Origin: an uncultured Gammaproteobacteria bacterium
Lineage (GTDB): Bacteria > Cyanobacteriota > Vampirovibrionia > LMEP-6097
Assembly: GCA_964438425.1 (NCBI GenBank)
Contig: CAYTKM010000002.1
Coordinates: forward strand, 9,546 to 73,545
Reading direction: 5' to 3'
DNA: 64,000 nucleotides
Shown one piece after another: positions 2,666 through 54,102 of the stretch. Positions within the stretch are counted from its first letter, which is position 1; each line of letters starts with the position of its first letter. The notes beneath the pieces were generated by a model, which did not search any database, was not told the DNA's origin, and saw only the letters and a program-made list of their open reading frames with translations. The translations under genes were made by a program, and so were the position numbers.

Positions 2666-3325
2666 ATGGCACATAAAAAACCTGAATTACCTTGGTCTCA
2701 AGACGCGCTTGAGCCAAACTACAAAAAAGAAACATTGGATTTCCACTATGGTAAGCATCATCAAGCTTACGTAGATAAGTTAAATAAAGCTTTAGAAGGC
2801 ACTGGTAAAGAAGATATGCCTTTAGAGCAGTTATTAACTGATCTTATGAAAAAAGATTTCCCAGAAGAGAAAAGACAAGCTGCTATCAATCATGGTGGTG
2901 GTCATTATAACCACTCTCTATTCTGGAGCATTTTGACTCCAAATGGTACTGAAAAGCCAGAAGGCGCTTTAGCTGAACAAATTACTGCTGATTTCGGTAG
3001 CTTTGAGAGCTTTAAAGAAGAATATGGTAATAAAGCGGCTACTTTATTTGGTAGTGGTTGGACTTGGTTAGTGGTTGAGCCATCATCTGGTAAATTAAGT
3101 ATCGAAAACACTGCTAATCAGGATAACTGCCTTATGAACTCTAGTAAAAAACCATTGATGGTACTAGATTTATGGGAACACGCTTATTACCTAGAGCACC
3201 AAAACCGTCGTCCAGATTTTATTAATGCTTTCTGGAAAATGGTAGACTGGAAAAAAGTAAATGAGAACTTCGAAGCTGCTAAAGCTGGCAACGATATCTT
3301 AGAACTTGAGCCTGTAGCTGCCTAG
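2666..3325 (+). CDS. sodA: superoxide dismutase, Fe/Mn family (Mn-type signature)
   Basis: Metal ligand regions HHxxH...NHGGGHYNHSLFW...DLWEHAYY. The GGHxNHSLFW block is characteristic of Mn-SOD rather than Fe-SOD. SD AAGGAGAAA upstream. Confidence 0.85.
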   Translation: MAHKKPELPWSQDALEPNYKKETLDFHYGKHHQAYVDKLNKALEGTGKEDMPLEQLLTDLMKKDFPEEKRQAAINHGGGHYNHSLFWSILTPNGTEKPEGALAEQITADFGSFESFKEEYGNKAATLFGSGWTWLVVEPSSGKLSIENTANQDNCLMNSSKKPLMVLDLWEHAYYLEHQNRRPDFINAFWKMVDWKKVNENFEAAKAGNDILELEPVAA

Positions 3326-3347
3326 TTTTATAGCTTAAAGACTAAAT

Positions 3348-3386
3348 TAAAAAGCCTTTCAGTTATTACTGAAGGGCTTTTTTATT
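3348..3386 (+). terminator. rho-independent terminator downstream of sod
   Basis: aaaaagcctttcag / ctgaagggct stem followed by TTTTTT. Confidence 0.6.
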
Positions 3387-3505
3387 GATGTATTTTATAT
3401 TTCATTAGATTAATGACCTTAACTATGAATCACTTAAGGAAATCTGATATCTACATAAGTCTAAAAAATAAACAATAAAGTCTATCAAAGAACTAAAATA
3501 GTCTT

Positions 3506-4570
3506 ATGAAGCTTTTGCATCAAGTCTTTTGTGAAACCTTTAAATTAGTGGATAGTACGGTGGATGAAGATTTTTTCCCACTTTTACAAGATCATGCTAT
3601 TTCGAAAAATTTAGCTGATTATAAAGCTAAGTTGAGAAAGAAGATTTGTGATTTATCTCAGCATAAAGTAACTTTAACTGAAAATAAAATACTTGAAGAC
3701 AAAAATAAAGTTTTGTATCTTAATTTAATGCATAAGCTCACTATAAATTCATTTTTAGACTCTGATAATATTCTTAAAAAGAGTTTGAGATTTGCTTATA
3801 ATGCCGAAGGTCTGGTTGCACCTGTAAATAAACTTGAAAATTACCTTAGGCAATCATATATTAAACAAGCTCTAGAGACTTATCATTTAAAGGTAGATAA
3901 GATTATAGCTAATTCTTTGACTGTTGAAGGTACTAAGCTGACTTCAACCCAACTAAATAAATTTAAGAGCGCTTTAGCATCTGAGCTAGACTATACTAAT
4001 CATCACCAGCAAATATCTAAAGCGATGTTTAATTTGTTAAATGGTATTCTGGCTGATAACCAAGAAATTGTACTAAAGTATCCACGTGATCTATCAAATA
4101 CTATTCCTGGTGGGCATTACCATACTATAAAACTAAGTGCTCTCAAAAATGGTGATTTAGCGATTGCTTATTTAGATAGTGAACTAAATTTAAGATCAGT
4201 TGATGAGCAACTTAAAATAGATATGACTTTAAAAGTATCTAAAAAAACAGGTTCAGTTACTGTGCTGAAAAACAATTCTCTTTTTAAATTATCAGATAAT
4301 GCAAGTGCCAAAAACTATAATGACCCTCTGTATCTTTTTAAGCATATATTCTTAATGCATGCGGGGCTTGAGAAGGAGAATGATCTAATAAATATTTTAG
4401 CTGGTTGCGCGCGCCTGCCTAATTTTATTAAACCTAACCGCGAGCTAGAATCTACCAGTATCCTAAAAACCAGTGAAAGTGGTTTAAAGACTTTATATCG
4501 AACCTTCTATGATGGTTTAGATCCTAATAGCTATCAAGTAGTTCAGGATTTTATTAGAGAAGTAAAGTAA
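3506..4570 (+). CDS. hypothetical protein (paralog A of a tandem pair)
   Basis: Long ORF with no recognisable domain. Its C-terminal two-thirds is clearly homologous to the next gene (MFNLLNGIL.../MFNLLKNII..., HIFLMHAG/HIFLDDKN, P(N/K)FI(K/S)P..ELES(T/S)). Confidence 0.55.
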   Translation: MKLLHQVFCETFKLVDSTVDEDFFPLLQDHAISKNLADYKAKLRKKICDLSQHKVTLTENKILEDKNKVLYLNLMHKLTINSFLDSDNILKKSLRFAYNAEGLVAPVNKLENYLRQSYIKQALETYHLKVDKIIANSLTVEGTKLTSTQLNKFKSALASELDYTNHHQQISKAMFNLLNGILADNQEIVLKYPRDLSNTIPGGHYHTIKLSALKNGDLAIAYLDSELNLRSVDEQLKIDMTLKVSKKTGSVTVLKNNSLFKLSDNASAKNYNDPLYLFKHIFLMHAGLEKENDLINILAGCARLPNFIKPNRELESTSILKTSESGLKTLYRTFYDGLDPNSYQVVQDFIREVK

Positions 4571-4795
4571 GGGTAAGACTAAGTTTGCTATAAATTTTAT
4601 AATTAAATTTTGAGCTTTGCATTGCGGCTTAAGTACCATGATGCTCTGCTATTATAGGTTGAAACTTAATGCTATTTAATAAAATATAGTTTAAGGTAAT
4701 AAGATATTAGGAGGGTTGGTGGTTTAAGACCTGGTTCACTTATATTCTATAAAACTTAATAATTAAATTGTATCAATGGGTTAAAATAAGACACC

Positions 4796-5905
4796 GTGGA
4801 AACATTTCGTCGTCTATACTTTCATGCACCAGAGTTTATAAAAGCTTTTAATAAATCTGATGCTAAAAATTATATTCAGCCAGATCAAAAAAATGTTGAG
4901 GCATTTATACCTAAGTCAAGCTCATTTTCTAAAACTGCTGACTTAAAAAGTCATGAAGCTAAACTTCGCAGTGAGATAACAGCTATGTCAAATAGCCCGC
5001 TTCCTGACATCAAAGATCTTAAACCTAGTAATCGTAAGCTAGAAAAAAAATTATTAGGCAAGCTTGACCAGATGTCGACAGGAATTGGTATTAACAAGGC
5101 TTTAGAATTAAAAAGAGCTATTAGAAATAACATAGTAAAGTTTGATAACCAAAACTTTTTTAACGCTGAAGAGTTTAATTTATATAATCAAAAAATAAAC
5201 TCGGCTTTAGCTTCTTATACGCGTAAAGTAGATTTAGTTACTAAAGATATGAATGAAGTAAAGTCTCATGATATTAATAATAGTACTATTGATGATTTAG
5301 TGAATAAATTTAAAGCTGAAAAGCAGTTTTTAAATGAGCATCAAAATCTTTCACCTACTATGTTTAATCTATTAAAGAATATTATCTCAGATAGTACAAA
5401 AGTTAGCTTAACTAATATACTTGATAATAATGACATGATACCATTTGGTCATCAACATGATTTAAAGCTAAGTTTAGATAATGAAGGTAATATACTAATA
5501 GATTATCTGAACGATGAAGCTGGCTTAGCTAGAAATGAGGATGATAATACTAAACTAGACTTCACTTTAAAAGTGGCTGAAGATACTAAGCAGATAACTA
5601 TTATTAGAAATGATTCTAAACTCGCTGCAAATTTACCAGAGGTATCCCAAAACAAGTTTACTCACCCTAGGCAACTTTTCGAACATATTTTTTTAGATGA
5701 TAAAAATTCTCGTGGCCTTAACATTCAAAACGATTTTATAGGCACTTTAAAAGGTAGTATAAGAATGCCTAAATTTATTAGTCCTCAACATGAACTTGAA
5801 TCAAGTACTATAGCCAGAGATAATCAAAAACCTAGAAGCACTTTTTTTAATGGTGTAGATTTAAAAACTAAGCAAGCTATTGATAATTATCTATCAAGTA
5901 ACTAG
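4796..5905 (+). CDS. hypothetical protein (paralog B of the tandem pair)
   Basis: Shares a C-terminal ~200-aa region with the 3506..4570 product. No known domain. Confidence 0.55.
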   Translation: METFRRLYFHAPEFIKAFNKSDAKNYIQPDQKNVEAFIPKSSSFSKTADLKSHEAKLRSEITAMSNSPLPDIKDLKPSNRKLEKKLLGKLDQMSTGIGINKALELKRAIRNNIVKFDNQNFFNAEEFNLYNQKINSALASYTRKVDLVTKDMNEVKSHDINNSTIDDLVNKFKAEKQFLNEHQNLSPTMFNLLKNIISDSTKVSLTNILDNNDMIPFGHQHDLKLSLDNEGNILIDYLNDEAGLARNEDDNTKLDFTLKVAEDTKQITIIRNDSKLAANLPEVSQNKFTHPRQLFEHIFLDDKNSRGLNIQNDFIGTLKGSIRMPKFISPQHELESSTIARDNQKPRSTFFNGVDLKTKQAIDNYLSSN

Positions 5906-5925
5906 AAAATCTGAGATATTAACCT

Positions 5926-6030
5926 AGAAAATAATTACAAATTATTCGATTTTCTATAAAATTATTCTAAATTTTATGATTTTTTGGAATAATTTTCTAA
6001 TTTTTAGAATAATTTAGAAAATTATTCTAA
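5926..6030. repeat. cluster of ~20-bp AT-rich motif copies (TAGAAAATAATTACAAATT-like and inverted copies) at ~30-bp spacing
   Basis: Motif copies at about 5926, 5957, 5985 (inverted) and 6005-6030. The same motif family occurs at 16.3 kb, 32.8 kb and 45.9 kb. Confidence 0.6.
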
Positions 6031-6097
6031 GTTAGTAGTTCTGATTATTTTCTGTAATCTTTATGGATTAAACATAAAAGCATTGAAAAATAAGCAT

Positions 6098-6120
6098 AAA
6101 AAAAGAGCTTTCGAGCTCTA
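6098..6120 (-). terminator. hairpin agagct-ttcg-agctct flanked by an A-tract (a T-tract on the minus strand); likely terminator for the minus-strand gene 6245..6583
   Basis: Perfect 6-bp GC-containing stem with a tetraloop. On the minus strand the sequence is followed by TTTTTTT. Confidence 0.4.
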
Positions 6121-6244
6121 AGTTGAATTTGTAAATTTGTTTATAATAAATATTATAGCAACTTTTCTTGGTCTATGCAAGTTAGACAGGTGCTTTAATA
6201 TTAAATATTGTTCATTTTAGTGGTTTTACATACTGAGTTATGTT

Positions 6245-6583
6245 TTACCTTAGTTTATGGCTTAAGTGTTTTAATAGGTTAGTAAGATGTTTATCTACTT
6301 TTTTTTGGGGTTCATTTTTTATAATAGCCGTGGCGAGTAGAGCCTTTTCTGTAACCCGTTGGTTATGCTGCAACCCACTGTTTCCTGTTTCTATAACTCG
6401 TTGATCCTTAGCTGAATATTCAGGAGTATATACTTTTATACTATGGTTAGGTTTAATAATCTCACTATTGGCTGAATTATCATTTGTATTAGAAGTAAGA
6501 AAAGCATCTTCAGTTAAGGGAATAATGGCTTTAAAAATATAGATCAAGTACTTAATATAATTTATTAAGAGCTCAACTTCCAA
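6245..6583 (-). CDS. hypothetical protein (112 aa)
   Basis: ORF divergent from the Fic gene. No recognisable motif. Confidence 0.4.
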   Translation of the reverse strand: MEVELLINYIKYLIYIFKAIIPLTEDAFLTSNTNDNSANSEIIKPNHSIKVYTPEYSAKDQRVIETGNSGLQHNQRVTEKALLATAIIKNEPQKKVDKHLTNLLKHLSHKLR

Positions 6584-6586
6584 ATA

Positions 6587-6647
6587 AATGGGTGCAATTG
6601 GGTGTGTTTATGGGTGAAGGGGTTGATAAATAGGTGAAAATGGGTGT
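6587..6647. promoter_or_regulatory. five direct repeats of (A/T)TGGGTG spaced ~10-13 bp apart in the divergent promoter region between 6245..6583(-) and the Fic gene
   Basis: aaATGGGTGcaATTGGGTGtgtttATGGGTGaagg...ATAGGTGaaaATGGGTGtat. The phasing of about one helical turn suggests an array of regulator binding sites. Confidence 0.35.
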
Positions 6648-6659
6648 ATAAATGATTAT

Positions 6660-7709
6660 GTGATAAACACAGATACATTAAAAATTTCTAGTGAAATTCT
6701 TAACCTTATTACACAAATCGATGAATTCAAAGGTGCTTGGCGAGCATTAGGTACACTTGCTCCTGAGCGTTTAAATGCATTAAAACATGTTGCAACTATT
6801 GAAAGTATAGGTTCTTCAACCCGTATCGAAGGTAGTAAGTTATCTGACCGTGATATAGAAAAATTGTTGTTAAACTTACAGATCAACCATTTTGATACCA
6901 GAGATGAACAGGAAGTGGCTGGTTACGCTGAAGTGATGGAATTGATATTTCAGGCTTGAGAAGATATTCACTTTAATGAAAATCATATTCAACAATTACA
7001 CCGTGATCTACTTAAATATAGTCAAAAAGATACCCGTCATCGTGGTAAGTATAAAACTTCATCAAATAGTGTTGCAGCTTTTGATCAAGCAGGCAAGCAA
7101 ATTGGCATTATTTTTGAAACCTCAACACCATTTGAGACTCCAGCTTTAATGAAGGAAATTATAGACTGGGTCAATCATACTTTAGAAAATAGATTGTTAC
7201 ATCCTTTACTAGCTATTGCAATTTTTACTGTAGTGTTTTTAGAAATCTATCCTTTTCAAGATGGAAATGGTCGTTTGAGTAGAGTCTTAACCACTTTGCT
7301 ACTGTTGCGTGCAGGTTATACTTACGTTCCATATAGTTCACTTGAAAGTGTGATTGAAAAGAATAAGGAAGGTTACTATTTGGCTTTACGTCAAACTCAA
7401 GGGACTATACCATCAAATTCTCCTAATTGGGAGCCTTGGGTTTTATATTTTTTAAGAATTTTACTGAAACAAACACAAAATTTATATAAAAAGGTAGAGC
7501 GCGAAAAAATAATTTTAGCTAATCTGCCAGAGCTATCTTTAAAGATTTTAGACCAAGTAAAGCAGCACGGTCGTGTAACTATGGCAGATATGATCAAGCT
7601 TACAGGGGTTAGCCGTAATACCTTAAAAGAGCACTTCAAATCTCTGCTTGAGAAAAACCATTTGGCTTTGCGTGGTAAAGGGCGTGGAAGTTGGTATGAG
7701 GGTGTATAG
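6660..7709 (+). pseudogene. Fic/Doc family protein (class II Fic with an N-terminal inhibitory motif), interrupted by a single in-frame TGA at 6957..6959
   Basis: ORFs 6660..6959 and 7149..7709 are in the same frame, and the only stop between them is TGA 6957-6959. The N-terminal part carries the S-x-x-x-E-G inhibitory motif (STRIEG). The downstream part carries the Fic motif HPFQDGNGRLSR (YPFQDGNGRLSRVL). Confidence 0.7.
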
Positions 7710-7837
7710 TGACTTTTAACGAGACTGTTTATATGTATGTATACTTTTAACGTTTGAAAATATATAATAAAACTATTATTTAATGCTAAGTTTAGACCTG
7801 ATCTCTTGCTGCTAAAGTATGTAAAATATATTAATTA

Positions 7838-9553
7838 ATGCATCAACTCACAATTAAATTAAACAAATCTTATAAATCATTTATTACTGGATTTGAGACT
7901 ACTTTGTCGGGTGACTTGGTAATTTTGTCAGGTGTAAATGGAAGTGGTAAATCTCAACTAGCAGATATTATTGCACATCAACAGCACCAGAAAAGATCAT
8001 TACGTATCGAGGCAACAGTTAAGTTAAATGGAAAAGATTTTGGTATGGGTGAAGTGATTGTTCGTTCTTTTATAGAGAGTGTAAATTTAAATAATTTTCG
8101 TCAAACAGATGTGTTACAGATTAATCGTACTAAAGATATGATCTGGAACTGGTATGAAAGCAGTAAATTAACTCCAAAGGATAACGATGGTTCAATTAGA
8201 TGGTCAAGGCAGATAAAATATATTAAAAATATATTGATTGAAAAATTTGGACAAGAAAAATTTAATCTTCTGAGTAGGGAGGAATTCGAAAGGTCTCTTC
8301 CTGATAATATAAATATTTCTGATGATGATATTTTTAATGATGAAATATCTAAGAATTTCCATTTATTTGCTTTTGATAAAGTTGAAAAACAAAAAGAATA
8401 TTCATTTAAACCAGAAATTTTCGATTCGTCAATTCTAGGTCAAGCTCCATGGGAAGAATTGAACTCTGTACTTAAAGATCTTGATCTAGCATATAGATTT
8501 AGAGGAAATTTCGATATATGTAATGGTGTATTAAATCATGAAGTAGCAATATATCCAATAAATAATGATGGCTCTTTGAATTATCAAGAGCCAAGAAATA
8601 TATCAGATTTATCCACTGGAGAAAAAGCAATATTATCGCTTATTACTGGAACTTTATTTAATGACCCTAGTAACTTACCTAAAGTTATAGTCTTAGATGA
8701 ATATGATGCAAATTTCAATCCTTCATTAACTCAAGCATTTTATAAAATACTTGATAAGCACTTTATTAAAAGGGGGATAATGATCATCTTTATAACTCAC
8801 TCAATATCATCAATTGCATTAGCTCCAAATTCTGCTGAGTTTTATGAACTATTTAAGCCAGATGTCGCTGAAGAGGGGAAAAGAATTTTTAGAGTTCAAA
8901 AAGAAGAATATAAAGAGATGAATATTCTCGAACTAATTTTTAAGAAATATTCTAATACTAAGAAGCGTTATCGAGAAGTAAACAGTCAAGAAAAGTTAAT
9001 CATGGATACTACCAATTTACCTAAATTATATGTTGAAGGTAAAACAGATAAGCAATATATAGAGAAGGCTGCAGAATTACTGAACTTTAATAGAATAGAG
9101 GATATTGAGATCATTTGTGGTGACGGCTCTGCCAACTTAACTAATATATATAAGGGACTGTTACGTTCTCAGCGCTTAAACTCTAGAATTCTAGTGTTGC
9201 ATGACTGTGATGTTAAAAAAGCAAAAAATGAATCAGAACCAGCTGAAAATCCGATTTTATTTCAAAGAGCAATTGATCAGATGAGTAGTCACTTCATCAA
9301 AAAAGGCATAGAGAACTTGTTTTCCAATGAAACTATAGAAACAGCTAGAGATGGATTACAATTAGAAGGTTTATACAGGGAATCTATACCAGATGCTTCT
9401 AAATTAGAAGTAAGAATTAGAAAATTAGATGATCAGTATAAGGTAAGGTTGGCTGACTGGCTTTGTGAGAATGGTACAACTAAGGACTTTAAAGAGTTCT
9501 CTAAAATTTTTGATTGTATTAAAGAGTGTTTATTTATTAATGAAACTAAGTAG
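7838..9553 (+). CDS. OLD-family ABC-ATPase / Toprim (DUF4435-like) fusion protein; candidate single-protein antiphage nuclease (class 1 OLD / GajA-like / fused PARIS-like)
   Basis: Walker A GVNGSGKS, ABC-signature-like LSTGEKA, Walker B VIVLDEYD, H-loop ITHS. The C-terminal ~200 aa carry LYVEGKTDKQY and LHDCD (Toprim Glu plus DxD). The length (571 aa) matches P2 Old and GajA. Confidence 0.65.
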   Translation: MHQLTIKLNKSYKSFITGFETTLSGDLVILSGVNGSGKSQLADIIAHQQHQKRSLRIEATVKLNGKDFGMGEVIVRSFIESVNLNNFRQTDVLQINRTKDMIWNWYESSKLTPKDNDGSIRWSRQIKYIKNILIEKFGQEKFNLLSREEFERSLPDNINISDDDIFNDEISKNFHLFAFDKVEKQKEYSFKPEIFDSSILGQAPWEELNSVLKDLDLAYRFRGNFDICNGVLNHEVAIYPINNDGSLNYQEPRNISDLSTGEKAILSLITGTLFNDPSNLPKVIVLDEYDANFNPSLTQAFYKILDKHFIKRGIMIIFITHSISSIALAPNSAEFYELFKPDVAEEGKRIFRVQKEEYKEMNILELIFKKYSNTKKRYREVNSQEKLIMDTTNLPKLYVEGKTDKQYIEKAAELLNFNRIEDIEIICGDGSANLTNIYKGLLRSQRLNSRILVLHDCDVKKAKNESEPAENPILFQRAIDQMSSHFIKKGIENLFSNETIETARDGLQLEGLYRESIPDASKLEVRIRKLDDQYKVRLADWLCENGTTKDFKEFSKIFDCIKECLFINETK

Positions 9554-9572
9554 AATTTCATCAATCAGTAGT

Positions 9573-9983
9573 CTAGAGGTGATCTAGCTGCACAAAAAGC
9601 AAAGCTTTTGCTTGCTGTTCAGGGTACTTTAGTCTGCGCAGTGGTAGTTTAGCTGGCATCTCCCTTCATACCCTTCCTCCTTTGCTCGGAGGTTAAATAT
9701 TCAAATCAACGTCGAATCTACTAGTTATACAAAAATAAAAAGTGCCCCGATGGACGCTTTTTATTTTAATAATAATGGTGGACCCGAGGTGATCTAGCTG
9801 CACAAAAAGCGATGCTTTTTGCTTGCTGTTCAGGGTATTTTAGCGTGCGCAGTGTTACTTTAGCTGGCATCTCCCTTCATACCCTTCCTCCTCTACTTGG
9901 AGGTTAGATATTCAGGTCAACGTCGAATCTACTAGGTATACAAAAATAAAAAGCGCCCTGATGGACGCTTTTTATTTTTAAAA
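9573..9983. repeat. two tandem ~208-bp direct repeats (unit A about 9573..9775, unit B 9776..9983), each beginning with a copy of the 3' end of tRNA-Ala and ending with a terminator hairpin
   Basis: Unit B starts with tggtggacccgaggtgat, 18/18 identical to tRNA-Ala positions 59-76 including CCA. Unit A retains 8 nt (gaggtgat). The units are about 88% identical. Each ends with aaaaagcgcc(c)tgatggacgcttttt. Confidence 0.8.
9941..9976 (-). terminator. rho-independent terminator immediately 3' of tRNA-Ala (a second copy sits at about 9731..9767 inside repeat unit A)
   Basis: aaaaagcg-cc-ctgat-gg-a-cgcttttt hairpin flanked by A- and T-tracts. It can act as a bidirectional terminator. Confidence 0.55.
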
Positions 9984-10059
9984 TGGTGGACCCGAGGTGA
10001 TTCGAACACCCGACCTCCTCGGTGCAAACGAGGCGCTCTACCAACTAAGCTACGGGCCC
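9984..10059 (-). tRNA. tRNA-Ala (anticodon UGC)
   Basis: 76-nt cloverleaf on the minus strand: GGGCCCG acceptor stem with the G3:U70 Ala identity pair, D-arm GCTT/AGTTGGTA/GAGC, anticodon stem-loop CCTCG-TTTGCAC-CGAGG, T-arm GGGTG-TTCGAAT-CACCT, and an encoded CCA. Confidence 0.95.
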
Positions 10060-47411: not shown

Positions 47412-50228
47412 TTAATCAAGTTTTAATAGCACTGGACTAATTTCAGCTTCAACATCAGCAGGCTCTATGTCAAGCTCTTCTAGATCTCTACTAGATGAAG
47501 AACTAGTTGCATTAATGAAGATAGAGAAGTTTCTTAAGTCTTTTAATAAGCTTTTTAGCATTTTCTTATCCTGTTTATTAATCTTGTCATCTTCGTTGTA
47601 GTCAAACAAGTCATAAAATGAATTAGTATCTACAGTAGCTAAGTTACGGTCACGGTCAAACAAGAACTCTTTGCGGGCTTTTTTAAACTGTTTTTTATAA
47701 GCCTTATTAAGTTTTTTCTTAGGTAACTTGCCATCGAGATTTACATCAAGTAATTCAGCAGCATACAGGAATCTATGAACCTGAATATCACAGCTTGCAT
47801 AGTCTAAACTACGATCTAAAGCATCAACATTACTATCATTGTTTAAATCGAATTTAGGATGGTTAGTTGCAAGTGTGCTAGCAGGAGTAGTATTTTGGCT
47901 ATCGTTAATCAATAGATTTAATTCGCTAGCTAATTTTAATTTCTCTAAGTTCTCTAGATTACTATTTTTATTAACATCAAAACCATTATCCTCAAGTGCA
48001 TTAGTCGCTTCCACGCACGCTAATGGCGTAGGTGCTTGCGGCTGGACTACTGGAGTCTGGCTTAGATCTATAGTCGGGTTAGGTGAGCCAGTGCCAGCAG
48101 TTACTACATCGATCACAAAGCTTTTATCAACAGTAATTCCTGAACCGCTATCATTACATTCGATAGTAATTGTATACTGTGGTTTAGTATTTTTATCAGT
48201 ACTAACTGTAGTTTTAAGTTCCATGTTTGAAAAGCTAATATCGCTGCTGGTATTTACAAGCGAGCAGGCTATTGAATCATTTTCTGGATCCGTCACAACT
48301 ACTCTAGAGATTAAAGTACCAGCAGGTTGGCTATCTTGCACTTCCTGAAACTCTAAATTAATAGAATCTACTGGAAAGTTACCATTAGGAAGCTTAGATC
48401 TTAAGACAGGAGTCATTAAACCTTCTGAAATATACCAGATGTTAGTAAAATCCCAATTCTGGTAAGAAGCTTGCTGTCTTTTAGCTGTGCTGTTCAATAA
48501 AACTGCTACTGTAGCTGCATTACTATTAGTATTAAAGTTATTAAATAGATCTGGTGTGATACCAGCTGCTGTTACATCGGTAAAGTACGCATCAGTAAAA
48601 CTGATATCTTCGATATCGTCATTATTCAAGAATTCACCGACTAGTGGATACTCTTCTAAGTCTATAGTATCGACTACACTACCATCAGCATATGAGTTAA
48701 TGATATCAGTGTCACCACCGTCAATCTCACCGATTAAACCAGCTGCGGCGCCACCATCAGCAAAAACATTCACCTTAGCATATGAATTTTTGATTACGAT
48801 AGTGTCAGTGCCACTTGAGCTATCACCGATAAGACCGCCAGCTTCAGCGCCAGCAGTCAAAACATTACCTTCAGCAAAAGACTCTTCTATTAAAGTGTCA
48901 TCGTTAACATCACCGACTAAACCACCTATGTTCTCACCATTTACATTAGCGTCTATATATGCACAAGACTTTTTAATAGTTAAAGTATTATCGTCAATTT
49001 CGCCGACTAAGCCACCAGTATCACTACCTAAATTATTTAAGGTAATCAAAACATCCGAATTTAAAATCGTTAGATCAGTTTGAGCGTCACCTACTAATCC
49101 CCCTACATCGTTACCGAAAGACTCTATAAAGCCTGTAAATTCAGAGTTAGTGATAGTAGTAATGCCATTGGTGATACCAACTAGACCACCAACGTTGTTT
49201 ACTTCGGTTTTGCTACCCTGATAGAAGAGATCAGCCTGAATATTAATATTGTCAAGTTCAATATTACCGAGAGTTTCACCTGCTAGACCACCAAAATTAC
49301 GTGGCGTGCCAGAAAAATTAGGATTATCCACGATTACTAAAGATGAACCAGTGACGTAAATATCACTAATTTTACTATCAGCAGGAATCGCAGAAAGTAC
49401 TAGTGCAGCGTTAAAATTCCCACTATTAACAGTTATATTATCTAAAAAAGCATTTTTTAGGTAGATAGGTTTAATAACACTAAAGTAACCACCGATAAGA
49501 CCTGCTGCTGCTGCATCAGTACTCGAGTGCATAACGGTTATATTATTTGCTGTAATATTTTCATAAATACCAGCTTTAGTACCACCAACAAGAGCTCCTA
49601 AACGATTGTCACCTTCTATAATAATATTATTTAAAGTAATATTCTCAACTTTAGTATCATTTATAGGGTTATTAATATCGAAATCATCTTCATTAGTCGC
49701 TATTAAAGCTGCTACTTTTTCAGTTCCGATAAAGGTACTTTGAGAGATTGTGACATCATCAAAGCTTGAATTTTCAGCTTTACTAAAGATAGCTACTCTT
49801 TCGGTACTACTACTCAGTACTATATTATTGAAGTTAATATTTTTTACTAGAGAGTTGTTTATTTCTCTAAATAAACCCAGTCTGGTACTGCCGCCAGTAG
49901 TATCTATGGCTTCTAGGTTAGATACAGTAAAGTTGTTACCATCTATAACTACACAAGATAAAGCCTGATCATTTAAGTCAGCTGCTACAAAGGTAGTATT
50001 AGCGCTATCGCAATCTATATTGCCTGCTAGTTTGTAGTAGGTATCATCAGCAGTAATATTTCTAAGATCATTACAATCAGAGATAGTTTCTTCGATTAAA
50101 CCTGTAGTACAAGTACTAGGTAGACCAACTGAGCTAGGACTAGTGGTAGCGAAAGACAGTGCGTTTGCGGCTTGCAAGCCAGCCAAACACATAACCATGG
50201 TGAAAAAAGTTGTATAAAATCTTTTCAT
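47412..50228 (-). CDS. giant secreted surface protein (about 938 aa mature): N-terminal signal peptide, repetitive right-handed beta-helix-like central region (GGLVG/GGLIG repeats), C-terminal ~150-aa dockerin/EF-hand-like plus basic module
   Basis: Signal peptide MKRFYTTFFTMVMCLAGLQAANA; the ORF-track start at 50270 adds 14 aa upstream. Dozens of G-G-L-(V/I)-G-containing ~22-aa repeats. C-terminal Ca-binding-loop-like DLNNDSNVDALD and FDYNEDDKINKQD flank a Lys/Arg-rich helix. Confidence 0.7.
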   Translation of the reverse strand: MKRFYTTFFTMVMCLAGLQAANALSFATTSPSSVGLPSTCTTGLIEETISDCNDLRNITADDTYYKLAGNIDCDSANTTFVAADLNDQALSCVVIDGNNFTVSNLEAIDTTGGSTRLGLFREINNSLVKNINFNNIVLSSSTERVAIFSKAENSSFDDVTISQSTFIGTEKVAALIATNEDDFDINNPINDTKVENITLNNIIIEGDNRLGALVGGTKAGIYENITANNITVMHSSTDAAAAGLIGGYFSVIKPIYLKNAFLDNITVNSGNFNAALVLSAIPADSKISDIYVTGSSLVIVDNPNFSGTPRNFGGLAGETLGNIELDNINIQADLFYQGSKTEVNNVGGLVGITNGITTITNSEFTGFIESFGNDVGGLVGDAQTDLTILNSDVLITLNNLGSDTGGLVGEIDDNTLTIKKSCAYIDANVNGENIGGLVGDVNDDTLIEESFAEGNVLTAGAEAGGLIGDSSSGTDTIVIKNSYAKVNVFADGGAAAGLIGEIDGGDTDIINSYADGSVVDTIDLEEYPLVGEFLNNDDIEDISFTDAYFTDVTAAGITPDLFNNFNTNSNAATVAVLLNSTAKRQQASYQNWDFTNIWYISEGLMTPVLRSKLPNGNFPVDSINLEFQEVQDSQPAGTLISRVVVTDPENDSIACSLVNTSSDISFSNMELKTTVSTDKNTKPQYTITIECNDSGSGITVDKSFVIDVVTAGTGSPNPTIDLSQTPVVQPQAPTPLACVEATNALEDNGFDVNKNSNLENLEKLKLASELNLLINDSQNTTPASTLATNHPKFDLNNDSNVDALDRSLDYASCDIQVHRFLYAAELLDVNLDGKLPKKKLNKAYKKQFKKARKEFLFDRDRNLATVDTNSFYDLFDYNEDDKINKQDKKMLKSLLKDLRNFSIFINATSSSSSRDLEELDIEPADVEAEISPVLLKLD

Positions 50229-50559
50229 GTTGTTTTTCCTCTTGGAACAAATCCTAACATATACAAACAAATAAAACTTAAGTTTTAGTGAAATTATCTT
50301 GATGATTTTTGTTGGGTTAAGCTATTTTAATTCTAAAGGCTTATAAACTTTAAAGCTTGGTATAGAAATGCTTTTGTACTTAAACATTACTCGTCTTATC
50401 TTTAAAAGTTGCTGTATGTGCGTAGATTTAAAGCTAAGTTCTTTTCTGTATTTAAATAGTTAGGCGTTTAAATTGTAAGTATTATATTTATTATACATAA
50501 AGTGCTTTTATTATATATAATTCTTTTTGGCACTACTGGTATGTAATTATGTTGATTTG

Positions 50560-51122: not shown

Positions 51123-54102
51123 TTAGTTACTATTTTCAAGAGAGTCATCGAATGGTAACGCTTCTTCGTCAACTGATGTTTCAGTAACGATATCCGCTGG
51201 TAACTCATCATTATTTAAATCTTCTTGAACACTGTCATCTGATTGAGATGAGCTTGCAGCAGCAAAGATGCTGATGTTTCTTAGTTGTCTTAGAAGTTGT
51301 CTAAAGTATCTTTTATCTTTTTTGTTGATCTTATCATCTTCGTTATAATCAAATAGATCATAGAAAGAGTTAGTATCTACAGTTGCTAGATTACGGTTAC
51401 GATCAAACAAGAATTCTTTACGAGCTTTTTTAAACTGTTTCTTGTAAACATTGTTTAATTTTTTCTTAGGTAATTTACCGTCACGGTTAGTATCTAAGAT
51501 TTCAGCAGCGTGCAAGAATCTATGTACTTGTATATCACAATCAGCGTAGTCTAGGATTCTATCAAAGTTATCAATTAGATTATCATCGTTTAGATCAAAC
51601 TCTGGATAGTTAGTTGCTAGTGTCGCTGCTTGCGCGCTAGTTTCTTTACTATCTTGGATTAATAAGTTTAGTTTGCTTGCTAATCTTAATTTTTCTAAGT
51701 CTTCAAGTAAACCATTATTGTTGATATCAAAGCCATTGTTTACAAGTTCACTTGTCGCAGCTGGGCAAGCTAAAGGCTGTGGGTCACCGATTTGAGGATC
51801 AACAGTATTATCAGCTAAAGTCAAAGCTGGTCCTAAACCTTGACCAGTAATATTAGCCACTGCATTTAGAGGGAACACTCTAGTAATAGCTCTTTGTGAA
51901 CCGAAATCAGTACATTCAATCGTTAGATTTAAAACATCGCCTACATTGGCTGTTAAGTTACTAGCTAAAGAGATTGAAATATTGTCGTTAGAGTCTACGT
52001 CTAAAGTAAATAATGGGCTATTTTGTAAAACACATGTTACAGGATCTGTTTCAGGGTCTACTACTGTTACATTAGCAACTTTTAAACCAGCTATACCATT
52101 GTTTACTACAGCATTTTGATCTAAAGTGATACTTGATACTGGGTAGTTAGTGATTTTGAACCTTAATTCTGGAGTTGATAGACCATCTACGTTATACCAG
52201 ATGCTGTTGAAGTCAAAACCTACATAATTAGCTCTAAAGTTTTTGTCAGTGCTGTTAAGTTTTTGAGCAACAGTGCCTGAGCTATTATTAGTTGAAGAAG
52301 TGTTGAAGTTAGTCGCAAGTGTAGGTGCGAAGTTAGCTGAAGAACTAAAGTAAGCATCATTAAAAGTTACATTAATACCGTCATCATTGTTATTTACTTC
52401 ACCTACTAAAGGGTACTCGTCGTCGTCATTTGCAGTAACTAAATTACCATCAAAATATGAAGTGTTAATAGTGACATTGCTAGAACTTGAACTGTCCATC
52501 TCACCGATAAAACCACCAGCGTTATCATCTGTAGTAGAAAGGTTAACCTTAGAGTATGAATCAGTGATAATTACGTTATTAGCATCTACAACGAAACCAA
52601 CAAAAGAACCAACATCTTCAGCTGCACCGTTTATAGTACCTTTAACAAATGATTGATTAATATCGATACTATTACCTATACGTCCAGCAAAACCACCAAC
52701 TTCATCATCAGTAGCGTCAATATCAACTACGGCACATGTTTTATCAATATCTACAGCGCCACTATAGTTAGCACCAATTAAACCACCATTTAAACTATTA
52801 TCGTGATTTACATTACTATCGATAGTTACAATAGCATCAGAATTAGAGATAGTTAGATTACCATTACTAGCACCTACGATACCACCAACTTCATCATCAA
52901 AACCAGTAATAGTACCTTCAAACTTTACATTTTCAAAAGTATTATCAGTTGAATTAGCGTAACCTACGATACCACCAACTTTATCAATATTAGCTGAACC
53001 GATTTGATTAAAAGGAGCCAAATCTTTTACGTGTTTGATATCAGCTTTAACTAAGATATCCTTTAATCTAACACCATCCTGATAGTACTCACCAATTAAA
53101 CCACCGATGCTACTACTATTGTTGTTTGAACCACCTAAGTAGAGTAAATTTGAGTTAGTAATATTAACATTATTAACTACAGTATCTTTTCTAACAAAGC
53201 TTGAAAGTAGACCAGAAGCTGAACTTCTAGCTTTTACTTCGATGTTGCTTCCAGTAATGTCTGACCAGTTATTTGCTGTAGTAGAACCTAAACCGAAGAT
53301 ACCACCAGCATGGCTATATGTACCACCATGATCAACTACAACATTGGTTGCACTGATTTCGTTGGCTACAGTATCTTTCGCGCTACCTACTAAACCACCT
53401 ACGCGGGTACCAGCTTTAACAGAAGAGTTTGTTAAGTTAACGTTTGAGATAGTTTTAGGGAAATTAGGGTAGTTAGCTACTAGATCTAAAACGTTAGTGT
53501 CATCAGCATTAATACTGTAATCGTTTAAGTTTTGAGAGTAAGAACCTTCCATATTACCTACCAGCGCGCCAGCTCTTTCTCTAGTAGCTTCAACGATAAT
53601 ATTATTTAAGCTTAAGTTCTCAAAAGAACTGTTTTGTGAACCACCAACGATACCTACGCCATATTTACCTTTAATGTTGAAGTTCTCGAAGTCTAAGTTT
53701 TTAAGAATAGAATTTCTAAGTTGTTCGATTAAACCCATGTAATTTCTACTAGTGTTGTTTACAGTAAAGTTAGAAATTTTATAGTTAGTTGTAGAATTTT
53801 TCTGACCATCGATAACGATACAGTTTAAGTTGTTATTAGCTAAAGAGCCTGAGCTAGTAATACCATTACAATCAATGTCATTGGTTAAGGTATAAGCTGT
53901 GCCACCGTGTAAATCCAGCAAGTCTGTACAGTCTGATAAAGTATCAGTTGCTAAAGGCAATGTGCAGTTTGATTGTGGACTTTGTACAGTAGATGGGGCC
54001 ACTGTTGTTATAGTTACGGCACTAGGTGCAAAGGCACTGGCATCTGGCACTGTGCTTACCCCTATTGCTGTAACTAGAAATAATCTAGTAATTTTTTCAG
54101 TT
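51123..54102 (-). CDS. giant secreted surface protein, paralog of 47412..50228 (beta-helix repeats plus the same C-terminal module). The N-terminal signal peptide lies in the +1 frame relative to the ATG at 54100-54102, across a poly(A)6 tract
   Basis: Large ORF 51123..54050 (GTG). Upstream, ATG 54102-54100 gives MKNKLKK then stops. Adding one A to the A6 tract (plus-strand T6 54082-54087) yields MKNKLKKITRLFLVTAIGVSTVPDASA..., a canonical signal peptide. The C-terminal 150 aa are about 80% identical to the paralog. Confidence 0.7.

Follow-up and report, generated by a model that had tools for sequence, protein, structure and literature searches.

The gene at positions 7838-9553 of the DNA stretch analysed here (64 kb; hereafter, the window) raises the question of whether its product is an antiphage protein and, if so, how it relates to the defence systems already described. 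The initial annotation had interpreted it as an OLD-type ATPase-Toprim protein and a candidate defence gene, an interpretation that our analysis supports overall.

7838-9553, + strand: gene for an ABC-ATPase/Toprim fusion, complete, stop codon included (ORF list, translation)

The ORF list and the translation confirmed an ORF running from ATG to stop exactly at these positions and encoding 571 aa, with all the motifs quoted for it. Because the identical 571-aa protein was called on several independent metagenome contigs and has ~190 homologues (best E-value 4e-99, coverage 98-99%), the ORF is a real gene and no chance reading frame. Its start and stop agree with those of the homologues, and the protein is full length. 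It is a divergent member of the family (identity ≤36%) and the most divergent one in its alignment. All 53 invariant columns of a 26-member alignment are kept. Of 111 positions with ≥90% conservation the protein retains 90, which is comparable to other divergent members; the 21 altered positions include D260T beside the signature motif. We regard a non-functional or decaying remnant, with an ORF that looks intact and expression or activity lost, as an improbable reading of the gene. The divergence of the protein and its altered positions would fit such a remnant, as would the lack of a convincing promoter or Shine-Dalgarno signal for the gene (the promoter/terminator scan of the locus performed no better than on shuffled sequence). 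Against it stand the full-length ORF, the retention of the invariant positions and of every catalytic motif, and a conservation score of 81%, near the 83-87% of other divergent, intact members. In addition, contigs from different samples are identical to the window, with neither allele nor repeat-number variation.

The N-terminal two thirds of the protein carry the following features.

7838-8980, + strand: ABC ATPase module, about residues 1-381 (Pfam, PADLOC, invariant residues, predicted model, Foldseek)
7931-7954, + strand: Walker A motif GVNGSGKS, residues 32-39
about 8093-8482, + strand: helical insert within the ABC ATPase module, about residues 86-215
8609-8629, + strand: signature-like motif LSTGEKA, residues 258-264
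8684-8710, + strand: Walker B/D-loop VIVLDEYDA, residues 283-291
8795-8803, + strand: H-loop THS, residues 320-322, followed by a helical linker

The proposed ABC-type ATPase with Walker A, signature, Walker B and H-loop motifs is indeed present, and its key residues are invariant in 26 homologues (G32, N34, G35, G37, K38, Q40, S259, G261, E262, K263, D287, E288, D290 and H321). The module matches Pfam AAA_21 (E-value 5.6e-10) as well as SMC_N and ABC_tran, the window protein has no match to AAA_15, and the PADLOC matches of the module include mad3, AbiLi, NsnB and AriA. In the predicted model, helices spanning residues 92-214 form an insert that separates Walker A from the signature, and Foldseek searches with this model matched the ATPase module to OLD, GajA and SMC heads. 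Queried with the protein sequence or with its full-length profile, the PDB yielded generic ABC/SMC ATPases only; chains of OLD or GajA were absent at E ≤1. A housekeeping role, either as the ATPase subunit of an ABC transporter or as a repair or cell-cycle ATPase-nuclease, is highly improbable. It is suggested by the JGI name 'ABC-type uncharacterized transport system ATPase subunit', by weak NCBIfam matches to transporter ATPases, and by the existence of a non-defence OLD-family protein, the archaeal Cran1, which has a role in the cell cycle. However, the NCBIfam matches lie far under their cut-offs (34 versus 670 bits) and are confined to the stretch with the signature and Walker B, for which reason we rejected the transporter annotation. 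Furthermore, the gene has no permease or binding-protein partner, its ATPase is fused to a Toprim nuclease domain, and the taxonomic spread is sporadic, with a singleton cluster at 90% identity, a pattern not expected of a housekeeping gene.

The rest of the protein is formed by the putative nuclease module.

9014-9550, + strand: OLD-type Toprim nuclease module, about residues 393-571
9035-9049, + strand: Toprim E400/D404, in LYVEGKTDKQY (residues 396-406)
9203-9211, + strand: Toprim D456-x-D458, in LHDCD (residues 454-458)
9305-9322, + strand: GIENLF motif, family-specific
9440-9442, + strand: K535 of the Toprim module
9485-9490, + strand: D550-F551 of the Toprim module

Since the PDB sequence searches failed to classify the C-terminal domain, we modelled it separately. 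Of the Toprim/DUF4435-like module that had been proposed, the Toprim fold with the catalytic Glu and the DxD stood, but no DUF4435 match was obtained and the Pfam Toprim match was below threshold: OLD-like_TOPRIM (PF20469) scored 19.9 bits with the whole protein and 22.1 bits with the domain alone, the cut-off being 23.2. This model is matched weakly by 10 of 21 family members, and relatives reached via the domain profile exceed its cut-off (P0225, 33.3 bits; P0224, 23.9 bits). By its motif IV EGxxD, its motif V DxD and its similarity to RT-Toprim_I-C, the domain, taken by itself, falls into the Toprim lineage of type I-C retrons. Because the window protein's own matches to the RT-Toprim_I-C models are weak (E-values 0.005-0.013), this link to retron Eco2 rests on the family profile and the predicted structure. 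To our knowledge, the Eco2-type Toprim, a lineage of tRNA acceptor-stem/RNA nucleases, has so far been described as a reverse transcriptase (RT) fusion only. At E ≤1e-30 the domain profile search retrieved ~170 clusters (50% identity), and at 1e-3 ~1,400; none of the 150 best-scoring relatives was annotated or recognised as an RT fusion, and the module was also found C-terminal to TIR, receiver and unknown domains.

The surroundings of the gene comprise the following features.

about 3300-9983, no strand: low-GC stretch (25-34%) between sodB and the tRNA (composition profile)
6660-7709, + strand: SoFic-type Fic pseudogene (single-frame translation, PADLOC; Fic-like ORF 7149-7709)
9566-10001, no strand: tandem repeat, two copies of a 210-bp unit (repeat search, pattern search, pairwise alignment)
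9984-10059, - strand: tRNA-Ala (UGC), 3' end towards the ATPase-Toprim gene (ARAGORN; Rfam tRNA, 68.1 bits)

The gene lies between a Fic-like gene and a tRNA-Ala, as had been stated. The read-through Fic product aligns to positions 26-348 of the 361 in the PADLOC SoFic profile (E-value 5.7e-47), and its C-terminal piece alone matches at 2.4e-31. An in-frame stop interrupts this gene at 6957-6959, and its Fic motif reads YPFQDGNGRLSR (YPFQDGNGR), with a Tyr at 7248-7250 replacing the catalytic His, so that the intact ORF with HxFx(D/E)GNGRxxR expected of a SoFic gene is lacking. On the other side, the two 210-bp units are 90-94% identical, each includes the terminator hairpin of the tRNA-Ala, and each terminates with the final 18 nt of the tRNA (exact at 9776-9793 and 9984-10001, with a degenerate copy at 9566-9583). 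The duplicated tRNA 3'-end segments of the initial annotation are therefore present, the second exact copy at 9776-9793 having a chance expectation of 0, but their att-like reading gives way to a local duplication. Repeats of this kind bounding an island with the gene were rejected, since only two 18-mers were found (≤3 mismatches), both within 210 bp. Besides the Fic pseudogene and the ATPase-Toprim gene, the low-GC stretch contains a small ORF and two genes of unknown function that are paralogous to each other; it has no integrase, and Pfam and NCBIfam scans of 3506-4570, 4796-5905 and 6245-6583 gave no matches. We read it as a small, degraded island beside the tRNA-Ala, of which the ATPase-Toprim gene is the sole intact defence-type gene. 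The taxonomy of the genome, a melainabacterial one, was inferred from LysS homologues. The adjacent pseudogene, the lack of an integrase and the merely local repeats are further points for the decaying remnant considered above. Because its neighbours in the island are decaying, selection may not be acting on the ATPase-Toprim gene in this genome.

We compared this setting with 41 related loci, in which no neighbour family is conserved and no partner gene is constant. The closest genome-resolved relatives are flanked either by hsdM and hsdS or by the type III genes mod and res, and three relatives (L004, L006 and L007) lie inside another defence system. A defence context is not seen everywhere, since the family gene comes after thrABC in four Flavobacterium genomes and has housekeeping neighbours in further genomes. 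Searches of a phage collection and of plasmids gave no evidence that the family is carried on known mobile elements: tblastn against the phage collection yielded two marginal ATPase matches and no family member, and the plasmid search distant relatives only. A BFVD search returned giant-virus OLD-like endonucleases and no close phage relative. The positions of the closest relatives within restriction-modification (RM) operons also speak for a different reading, namely an accessory or guard module of RM systems (like PrrC, RloA/RloB or MADS Mad3/Mad4) that would act only with RM enzymes and, as no RM system is adjacent here, would be an orphan without independent function in this genome. This reading, to which we give little credence, is further favoured by the best PADLOC matches, which include mad3 for the ATPase and mad4 for the Toprim region (E-value 1.7e-5) of the methylation-associated MADS, by the match of one family member to Pfam RloB (3.9e-5), and by the precedent of PrrC, an embedded nuclease silenced by RM. 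However, the mad3, mad4 and RloB matches are weak and partial, RM neighbours are lacking at most of the 41 loci, and a position inside RM operons also characterises defence systems that work independently, for example HEC-04.

We consider the gene to be probably a stand-alone antiphage nuclease of the abortive-infection type, belonging to the OLD superfamily in the broad sense and combining an ATPase sensor with a Toprim effector. Both folds are present, together with the full set of ATPase motifs, the Toprim residues E400, D404, D456 and D458, the GIENLF motif and K535; a conserved partner is absent, and relatives have defence neighbourhoods. In such a protein, the N-terminal ABC ATPase with its helical insert of ~130 residues would serve as sensor and regulator, the fusion protein would probably form a dimer or a higher oligomer, and the modelled C-terminal domain would be the effector, a two-metal Toprim nuclease. 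The ATPase would keep the nuclease off in the uninfected cell, and a phage cue would then permit cleavage. Because close relatives lie within RM operons, this cue could plausibly be an anti-restriction or other anti-defence protein. Retron Eco2, which has the closest Toprim, AriB and P2 Old all arrest translation via RNA cleavage, whereas GajA and V. cholerae OLD nick DNA. By analogy with the former, the substrate may more likely be tRNA or another RNA, resulting in translation arrest, and DNA nicking as by the latter would be the less likely mode. A more specific proposal, which we put forward as a doubtful one, is that the family forms a distinct unnamed OLD-like class, in which an Eco2-type Toprim is controlled by an AriA/AbiL-like ATPase and not by msDNA, the protein being an RM guard that fires on phage anti-restriction proteins and the Toprim a widely shuffled cassette.

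If active, the protein would represent a new uncharacterised lineage among the single-gene ATPase-Toprim defences and would extend these to Melainabacteria and CPR bacteria, groups in which few examples of immunity have been studied by experiment. No long-standing question depends on the window gene itself, and the evolutionary point is the most useful: the Eco2 Toprim, which has been described as a lineage of its own within the Toprim superfamily, is closely related to Toprim modules outside retrons that are fused to ABC ATPases, TIR and receiver domains. Through these natural domain swaps one can ask what sets RNA versus DNA targeting and how varied sensors gate one nuclease.

Compared with the known systems, the protein is most likely a stand-alone ATPase-Toprim of the broad OLD superfamily and an uncharacterised member of an already known kind of system, as the initial annotation had expected. 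First, the assignment to class 1 OLD holds for the single-gene context (the gene is flanked by the Fic pseudogene and the tRNA, with no helicase, retron or separate Toprim gene) but not for a sequence relationship to P2 Old or T. scotoductus OLD (TsOLD). For this class, which also includes V. cholerae OLD, similarity of sequence to TsOLD, as to GajA, is undetectable in PDB HMM searches; the window ATPase is of the AAA_21 type (AriA/AbiLi/mad3-like) and not AAA_15, and motif IV of its Toprim is EGxxD. Second, Gabija (class 2 OLD) shares with the window protein the ATPase-Toprim fusion and structural matches of GajA, whose profile matches weakly from the signature motif to the DxD (E-value 1.7e-4), and differs by its UvrD/PcrA/Rep-like helicase GajB, which, as had been noted for the adjacent genes, is absent beside the gene, elsewhere in the window and at the related loci. 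Gabija, class 3 retrons and two-gene PARIS were rejected on the absence of their partner genes; the rest of the window contains no helicase, RT or RM gene. Third, in retron Eco2 (Ec67, type I-C), which cleaves the tRNA acceptor stem, the Toprim is fused to an RT and caged by msDNA, whereas that of the window protein is fused to an ABC ATPase; no RT domain occurs in the protein or its neighbours, and an msr/msd ncRNA was not found, Rfam yielding the tRNA only.

Fourth, it is unlikely that the gene encodes a fused PARIS, the merged 'class 4 OLD' form in which AriA and AriB are one polypeptide that senses anti-restriction proteins such as Ocr and then sets free or activates a DUF4435 Toprim, which nicks specific tRNAs in the anticodon stem. 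The AriA profile PDLC02980 was found in 24 of 26 family members (best 3.6e-20), with mad3, AbiLi and NsnB matching equally well, and in the window protein it covers residues 23-102 only (2.3e-6). An hhalign comparison (94.5%) supports a distant homology with a DUF4435 fusion. AriB-type DUF4435 does not match the window protein and matches one of 21 family members at 0.003, the PARIS profiles AriB and AriAB recognise one and two of the 21, respectively, and the Toprim of the window protein stands nearer to those of Eco2 and BpOLD. Fifth, AbiL and MADS share the ATPase matches (AbiLi 1.3e-9, mad3 4.4e-11) and, in the Toprim region, the mad4 match, and the RM-linked context of Rlo and MADS resembles that of the window protein's relatives. 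These systems (AbiL, MADS Mad3/Mad4 and RloA/RloB) differ in consisting of two or more genes, and they are matched only in part and weakly, AbiLii and RloB each by one of 21 family members. At last, HEC-01A gave weak ATPase matches only (PADLOC). We tentatively place the window protein in a lineage apart from HEC-04 because HEC-04 is absent among the 18 PADLOC families listed for it (E ≤0.1), from a library copy that possibly has no HEC-04 model. HEC-04 and IbfA, validated single-gene ABC ATPase-Toprim defences that are Hma-embedded or plasmid-borne, have the same architecture, and their embedding in another defence system is like that of L004, L006 and L007; in HEC-04, defence is lost in Walker A and in Toprim mutants.

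The open reading frame at 7838-9553 (+) is a real gene. The ORF list gives a 571-codon frame with an ATG start, independent metagenome contigs that match the window letter for letter have the same protein called, and a search of 5.8 billion proteins returned ~190 homologues. The best of these span the full length (565-586 aa, 98-99% coverage, E down to 4e-99) yet are only 36% identical, and the protein is therefore a singleton at 90% identity. Within its family of ATPase-Toprim homologues it is divergent: of 111 positions with at least 90% conservation it retains 90, and beside the signature motif it carries D260T. Every ATPase and Toprim motif quoted in the initial annotation was found in the 571-aa translation.

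Motifs in the translation of 7838-9553 (+)
residues 32-39, GVNGSGKS
residues 258-264, LSTGEKA
residues 283-291, VIVLDEYDA
residues 319-322, ITHS
residues 396-406, LYVEGKTDKQY
residues 454-458, LHDCD

The N-terminal half matches Pfam AAA_21 over residues 28-324 (E 5.6e-10), with SMC_N and ABC_tran ranking behind. In the 26-member family alignment, the invariant residues include those of Walker A (G32, N34, G35, G37, K38) and also Q40, the signature (S259, G261, E262, K263), Walker B with the catalytic Glu (D287, E288), the D-loop (D290, A291) and the H-loop (T320, H321, S322). In the AlphaFold model (pLDDT 79), a helical insert (residues 92-214) separates Walker A from the signature. The top Foldseek matches of the model in the PDB include OLD nucleases, namely that of retron Eco8 (1.2e-9) and T. 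scotoductus OLD (5e-8), along with SMC/cohesin heads, GajA and retron PtuA-type ATPases; by contrast, no OLD, GajA or AriA chain came up when PDB sequences were searched by HMM. The nearest PADLOC profiles are mad3, AbiLi, NsnB, the retron I-B ATPase-Toprim and AriA, with best family-level values of 3.6e-20 for AriA PDLC02980 and 8.7e-18 for mad3. By sequence, the ATPase is assigned to the AAA_21 group of defence ATPases and not to the AAA_15 group of P2 Old and GajA. There is no support for the name given at source, 'ABC transport system ATPase subunit', since the NCBIfam transporter-ATPase matches lie far below their cut-offs and are confined to the signature and Walker B region.

For the C-terminal half, the Toprim assignment from sequence alone is marginal. 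The initial annotation had proposed profile searches of both halves as a check; AAA_21 matched, but OLD-like_TOPRIM stayed below its cut-off.

Pfam matches of the C-terminal half, in the window protein and among 21 family C-terminal domains
OLD-like_TOPRIM: window protein 19.9 bits whole and 22.1 bits for the domain alone (cut-off 23.2); 10 of 21, weak
DUF3226: window protein E 0.003-0.017; 2 of 21
RloB: window protein no match; 1 of 21
DUF4435: window protein no match; 1 of 21

Ranked matches of the C-terminal half, with match values
1, retron Ec67/Eco2, 10.5 (158 residues aligned)
2, B. pseudomallei class 2 OLD C-terminal region, 9.6
3, GajA, 7.7
4, T. scotoductus OLD, 7.5
5, AriB, 7.4
6, PH0156, 6.9
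7 and below, generic Rossmann and receiver folds, at most 6.3

The proposed link to the Eco2-type Toprim is based on the family profile and the predicted structure. A profile of the family C-terminal domains alone matched a single protein among PDB sequences, that of retron Ec67 (E 2.3e-5). This alignment pairs E400/D404 with 'EGKTD' of Eco2 (E374, D378) and D456/D458 with the Eco2 'DND' (D460, D462), and also matches up the C-terminal K...DFxxF helix; the catalytic Glu and DxD named initially are present. The four Eco2 residues are those mutated in the dTOPRIM variant, in which RNase activity and defence are lost (PMC12916289). According to Mestre et al. (PMC7736814), the EGxxD and DxD motif pair is the signature of I-C Toprims, a separate lineage within the Toprim superfamily. 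PADLOC confirms the link at the level of family sequences: RT-Toprim_I-C models match 16 of the 21 C-terminal domains (best 4e-11), against two for AriAB and one apiece for AriB, AbiLii, mad4 and each GajA model, and the RT-Toprim matches of the window protein itself are weak (E 0.005-0.013). The initial annotation had described a Toprim/DUF4435-like module. The OLD-type Toprim part of this description stands, with Eco2 ranked top and its active-site residues aligned, but the DUF4435 profile finds no match in the window protein. Homology to DUF4435 nevertheless exists, more distant than the Eco2-type link: hhalign aligned the family profile with a Campylobacter plasmid AAA_21-DUF4435 fusion (94.5% probability, E 8e-8), bringing the EG, DxD and ENLF motifs into register. 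Beyond the classical Toprim residues, GIENLF (G490, E492, N493), K535 and D550-F551 are invariant in the family. Class 2 OLD structures rely for two-metal catalysis on a Lys of their helical region and on a second cluster of acidic residues, and we take K535 and E492 to be candidates for these roles.

An exhaustive HMMER search with the C-terminal profile over 1.84 billion representatives retrieved 1,382 clusters at E ≤1e-3, 697 at 1e-10 and 173 at 1e-30. The top 150 are mostly 550-640-aa proteins with the Toprim domain C-terminal, their N-termini being ABC ATPases of several subfamilies (AAA_15/AAA_21), and the family ATPase profile matches only 16 of 140 newly retrieved proteins. Other N-terminal partners of the Toprim module are a TIR domain in P0225, a response-regulator receiver in P0138 and, in P0242 and ~15 other clusters, a recurrent uncharacterised domain of ~200 aa that begins 'MELTFPFKNI...'; none of 10 proteins scanned carries an RT fusion. 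These fusions suggest a widely shuffled effector cassette. Since P0225 and P0224, both retrieved by this search, exceed the Pfam OLD-like_TOPRIM threshold, the module is tied to OLD-type Toprims by transitive homology.

By LysS similarity (L001 1935-3386, 76% identity to named MAG proteins), the source organism falls in Melainabacteria, near Candidatus Caenarcaniphilales, and is a non-photosynthetic cyanobacterial relative. The ATPase-Toprim gene lies in a 25-34% GC stretch (~3.3-9.3 kb) between sodB and tRNA-Ala. Housekeeping genes of mostly 35-43% GC flank it, with lysS, ahpC and sodB to its left and nuoC and nuoB to its right. The low-GC stretch also holds two paralogues without Pfam or NCBIfam match, a small ORF and a Fic gene. 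Both claimed neighbours, the Fic-like gene and the tRNA, are present.

Features around the ATPase-Toprim gene
3506-4570 (+) and 4796-5905 (+), adjacent paralogues, 354 and 369 aa, 31% identical (E 3e-40)
6660-7709 (+), SoFic-type pseudogene, two ORFs in one frame (6660-6959 and 7149-7709)
9566-10001, tandem pair of 210-bp units with 90-94% identity
9984-10059 (-), tRNA-Ala(UGC)

A lone in-frame stop (6957-6959) separates the two Fic ORFs, the Fic motif reads YPFQDGNGRLSR, in which Tyr (codon 7248-7250, YPFQDGNGR) replaces the catalytic His, and the read-through product aligns with positions 26-348 of the 361 in PADLOC's SoFic profile (E 5.7e-47). Together, these features mark the gene as a dead SoFic-type defence gene. 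Because neighbouring genes are decaying, activity of the ATPase-Toprim gene in the source genome is not assured. Each 210-bp unit comprises the last 18 nt of tRNA-Ala and ~190 nt downstream, terminator hairpin included; the 18-mer recurs a third time, in degenerate form, at 9566-9583. The att-like repeats described initially are real as duplicated tRNA 3'-end segments, but they are tandem local units between the gene and the tRNA that leave the gene unbracketed, with no further copy of the 18-mer and no integrase found in the window. They are consistent with earlier integration and excision events at tRNA-Ala but define no island; the tandem duplication itself may stem from repeated integration and excision or from slippage. 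Scanned ORFs in the rest of the window have housekeeping content and include neither a helicase nor an RM or RT gene, and an Rfam scan of the window gave tRNA only. Two large ORFs, 47412-50270 (-) and 51123-54050 (-), of 952 and 975 aa, match no Pfam family at E ≤1e-5.

A scan of 185,579 species representatives, the source genome not among them, found 60 loci with a family gene, in CPR (Woesebacteria, Parcubacteria, Saccharibacteria, Peribacteria, Gracilibacteria) and in Alpha- and Gammaproteobacteria, Rickettsiales, Flavobacteriia, Clostridia, Bacilli and one cyanobacterium. ORF clustering across 41 loci left the ATPase-Toprim gene as the sole common family, followed by serine recombinases (8 loci), and therefore there is no conserved partner. 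With no helicase among the window ORFs scanned either, the stand-alone, class-1-like arrangement proposed initially is borne out. Several of the closest relatives sit inside or beside defence systems; L004, L006 and L007 come from CPR and gammaproteobacterial MAGs.

Loci of relatives
L004, 6046-11086, family gene between hsdM and hsdS (type I RM)
L006, 6088-12219, family gene between mod and res (type III RM)
L007, 5873-12511, family gene between mod and res (type III RM), serine recombinase just downstream
L011, family gene after a Schlafen-type helicase
L012, family gene after AbiEi/AbiEii
L020, 5947-9857, Tenacibaculum, classical AAA_15 OLD-like gene (630 aa) directly followed by a family member (620 aa)

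The L020 arrangement places two ATPase-Toprim-type genes in tandem. In four Flavobacterium genomes, thrA-thrB-thrC precede the family gene. A distant member (633 aa, 26.5% identity over residues 253-565) on the mobilisable Acetobacter vaccinii plasmid NZ_CP043508.1 (L065, 3038-6549) adjoins a RelA/SpoT-domain gene, with IS3, IS5 and IS1182 transposases flanking.

One polypeptide carries both an ABC ATPase and an OLD-type Toprim active site, each of them complete, and no partner gene accompanies it. By analogy with characterised relatives, sensing and gating would fall to the ATPase, and the Toprim would be the effector, a two-metal nuclease; activation by a phage cue would then lead to growth arrest. 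The three best-studied relatives of the Toprim type all cleave tRNA: Eco2 at acceptor stems (PMC12916289), AriB by a nick in the anticodon stem and P2 Old by ATP-dependent amputation of the anticodon arm; GajA and V. cholerae OLD nick DNA. If the protein is active, RNA or tRNA would be its substrate with slightly better than even odds. An anti-restriction protein is a reasonable guess for the trigger, because relatives are embedded in RM systems and anti-defence proteins are known to trigger ABC-ATPase defences.

This kind of system is already known: P2 Old, V. cholerae class 1 OLD and HEC-04/IbfA are validated single-gene ABC ATPase-Toprim defences, and fused AriAB forms are noted in the literature. 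The gene fits the context-based definition of class 1 OLD ('class 1 OLD-like'), but by sequence the protein is neither close to P2 Old or TsOLD nor a clear member of PARIS, and the Gabija and retron definitions fail because the partners are absent. The initial view of a known kind of family in an uncharacterised lineage is supported. The novelty is modest: an unnamed family, joining an AriA/AbiL-like ATPase to an Eco2-type Toprim, found in a Melainabacteria genome.
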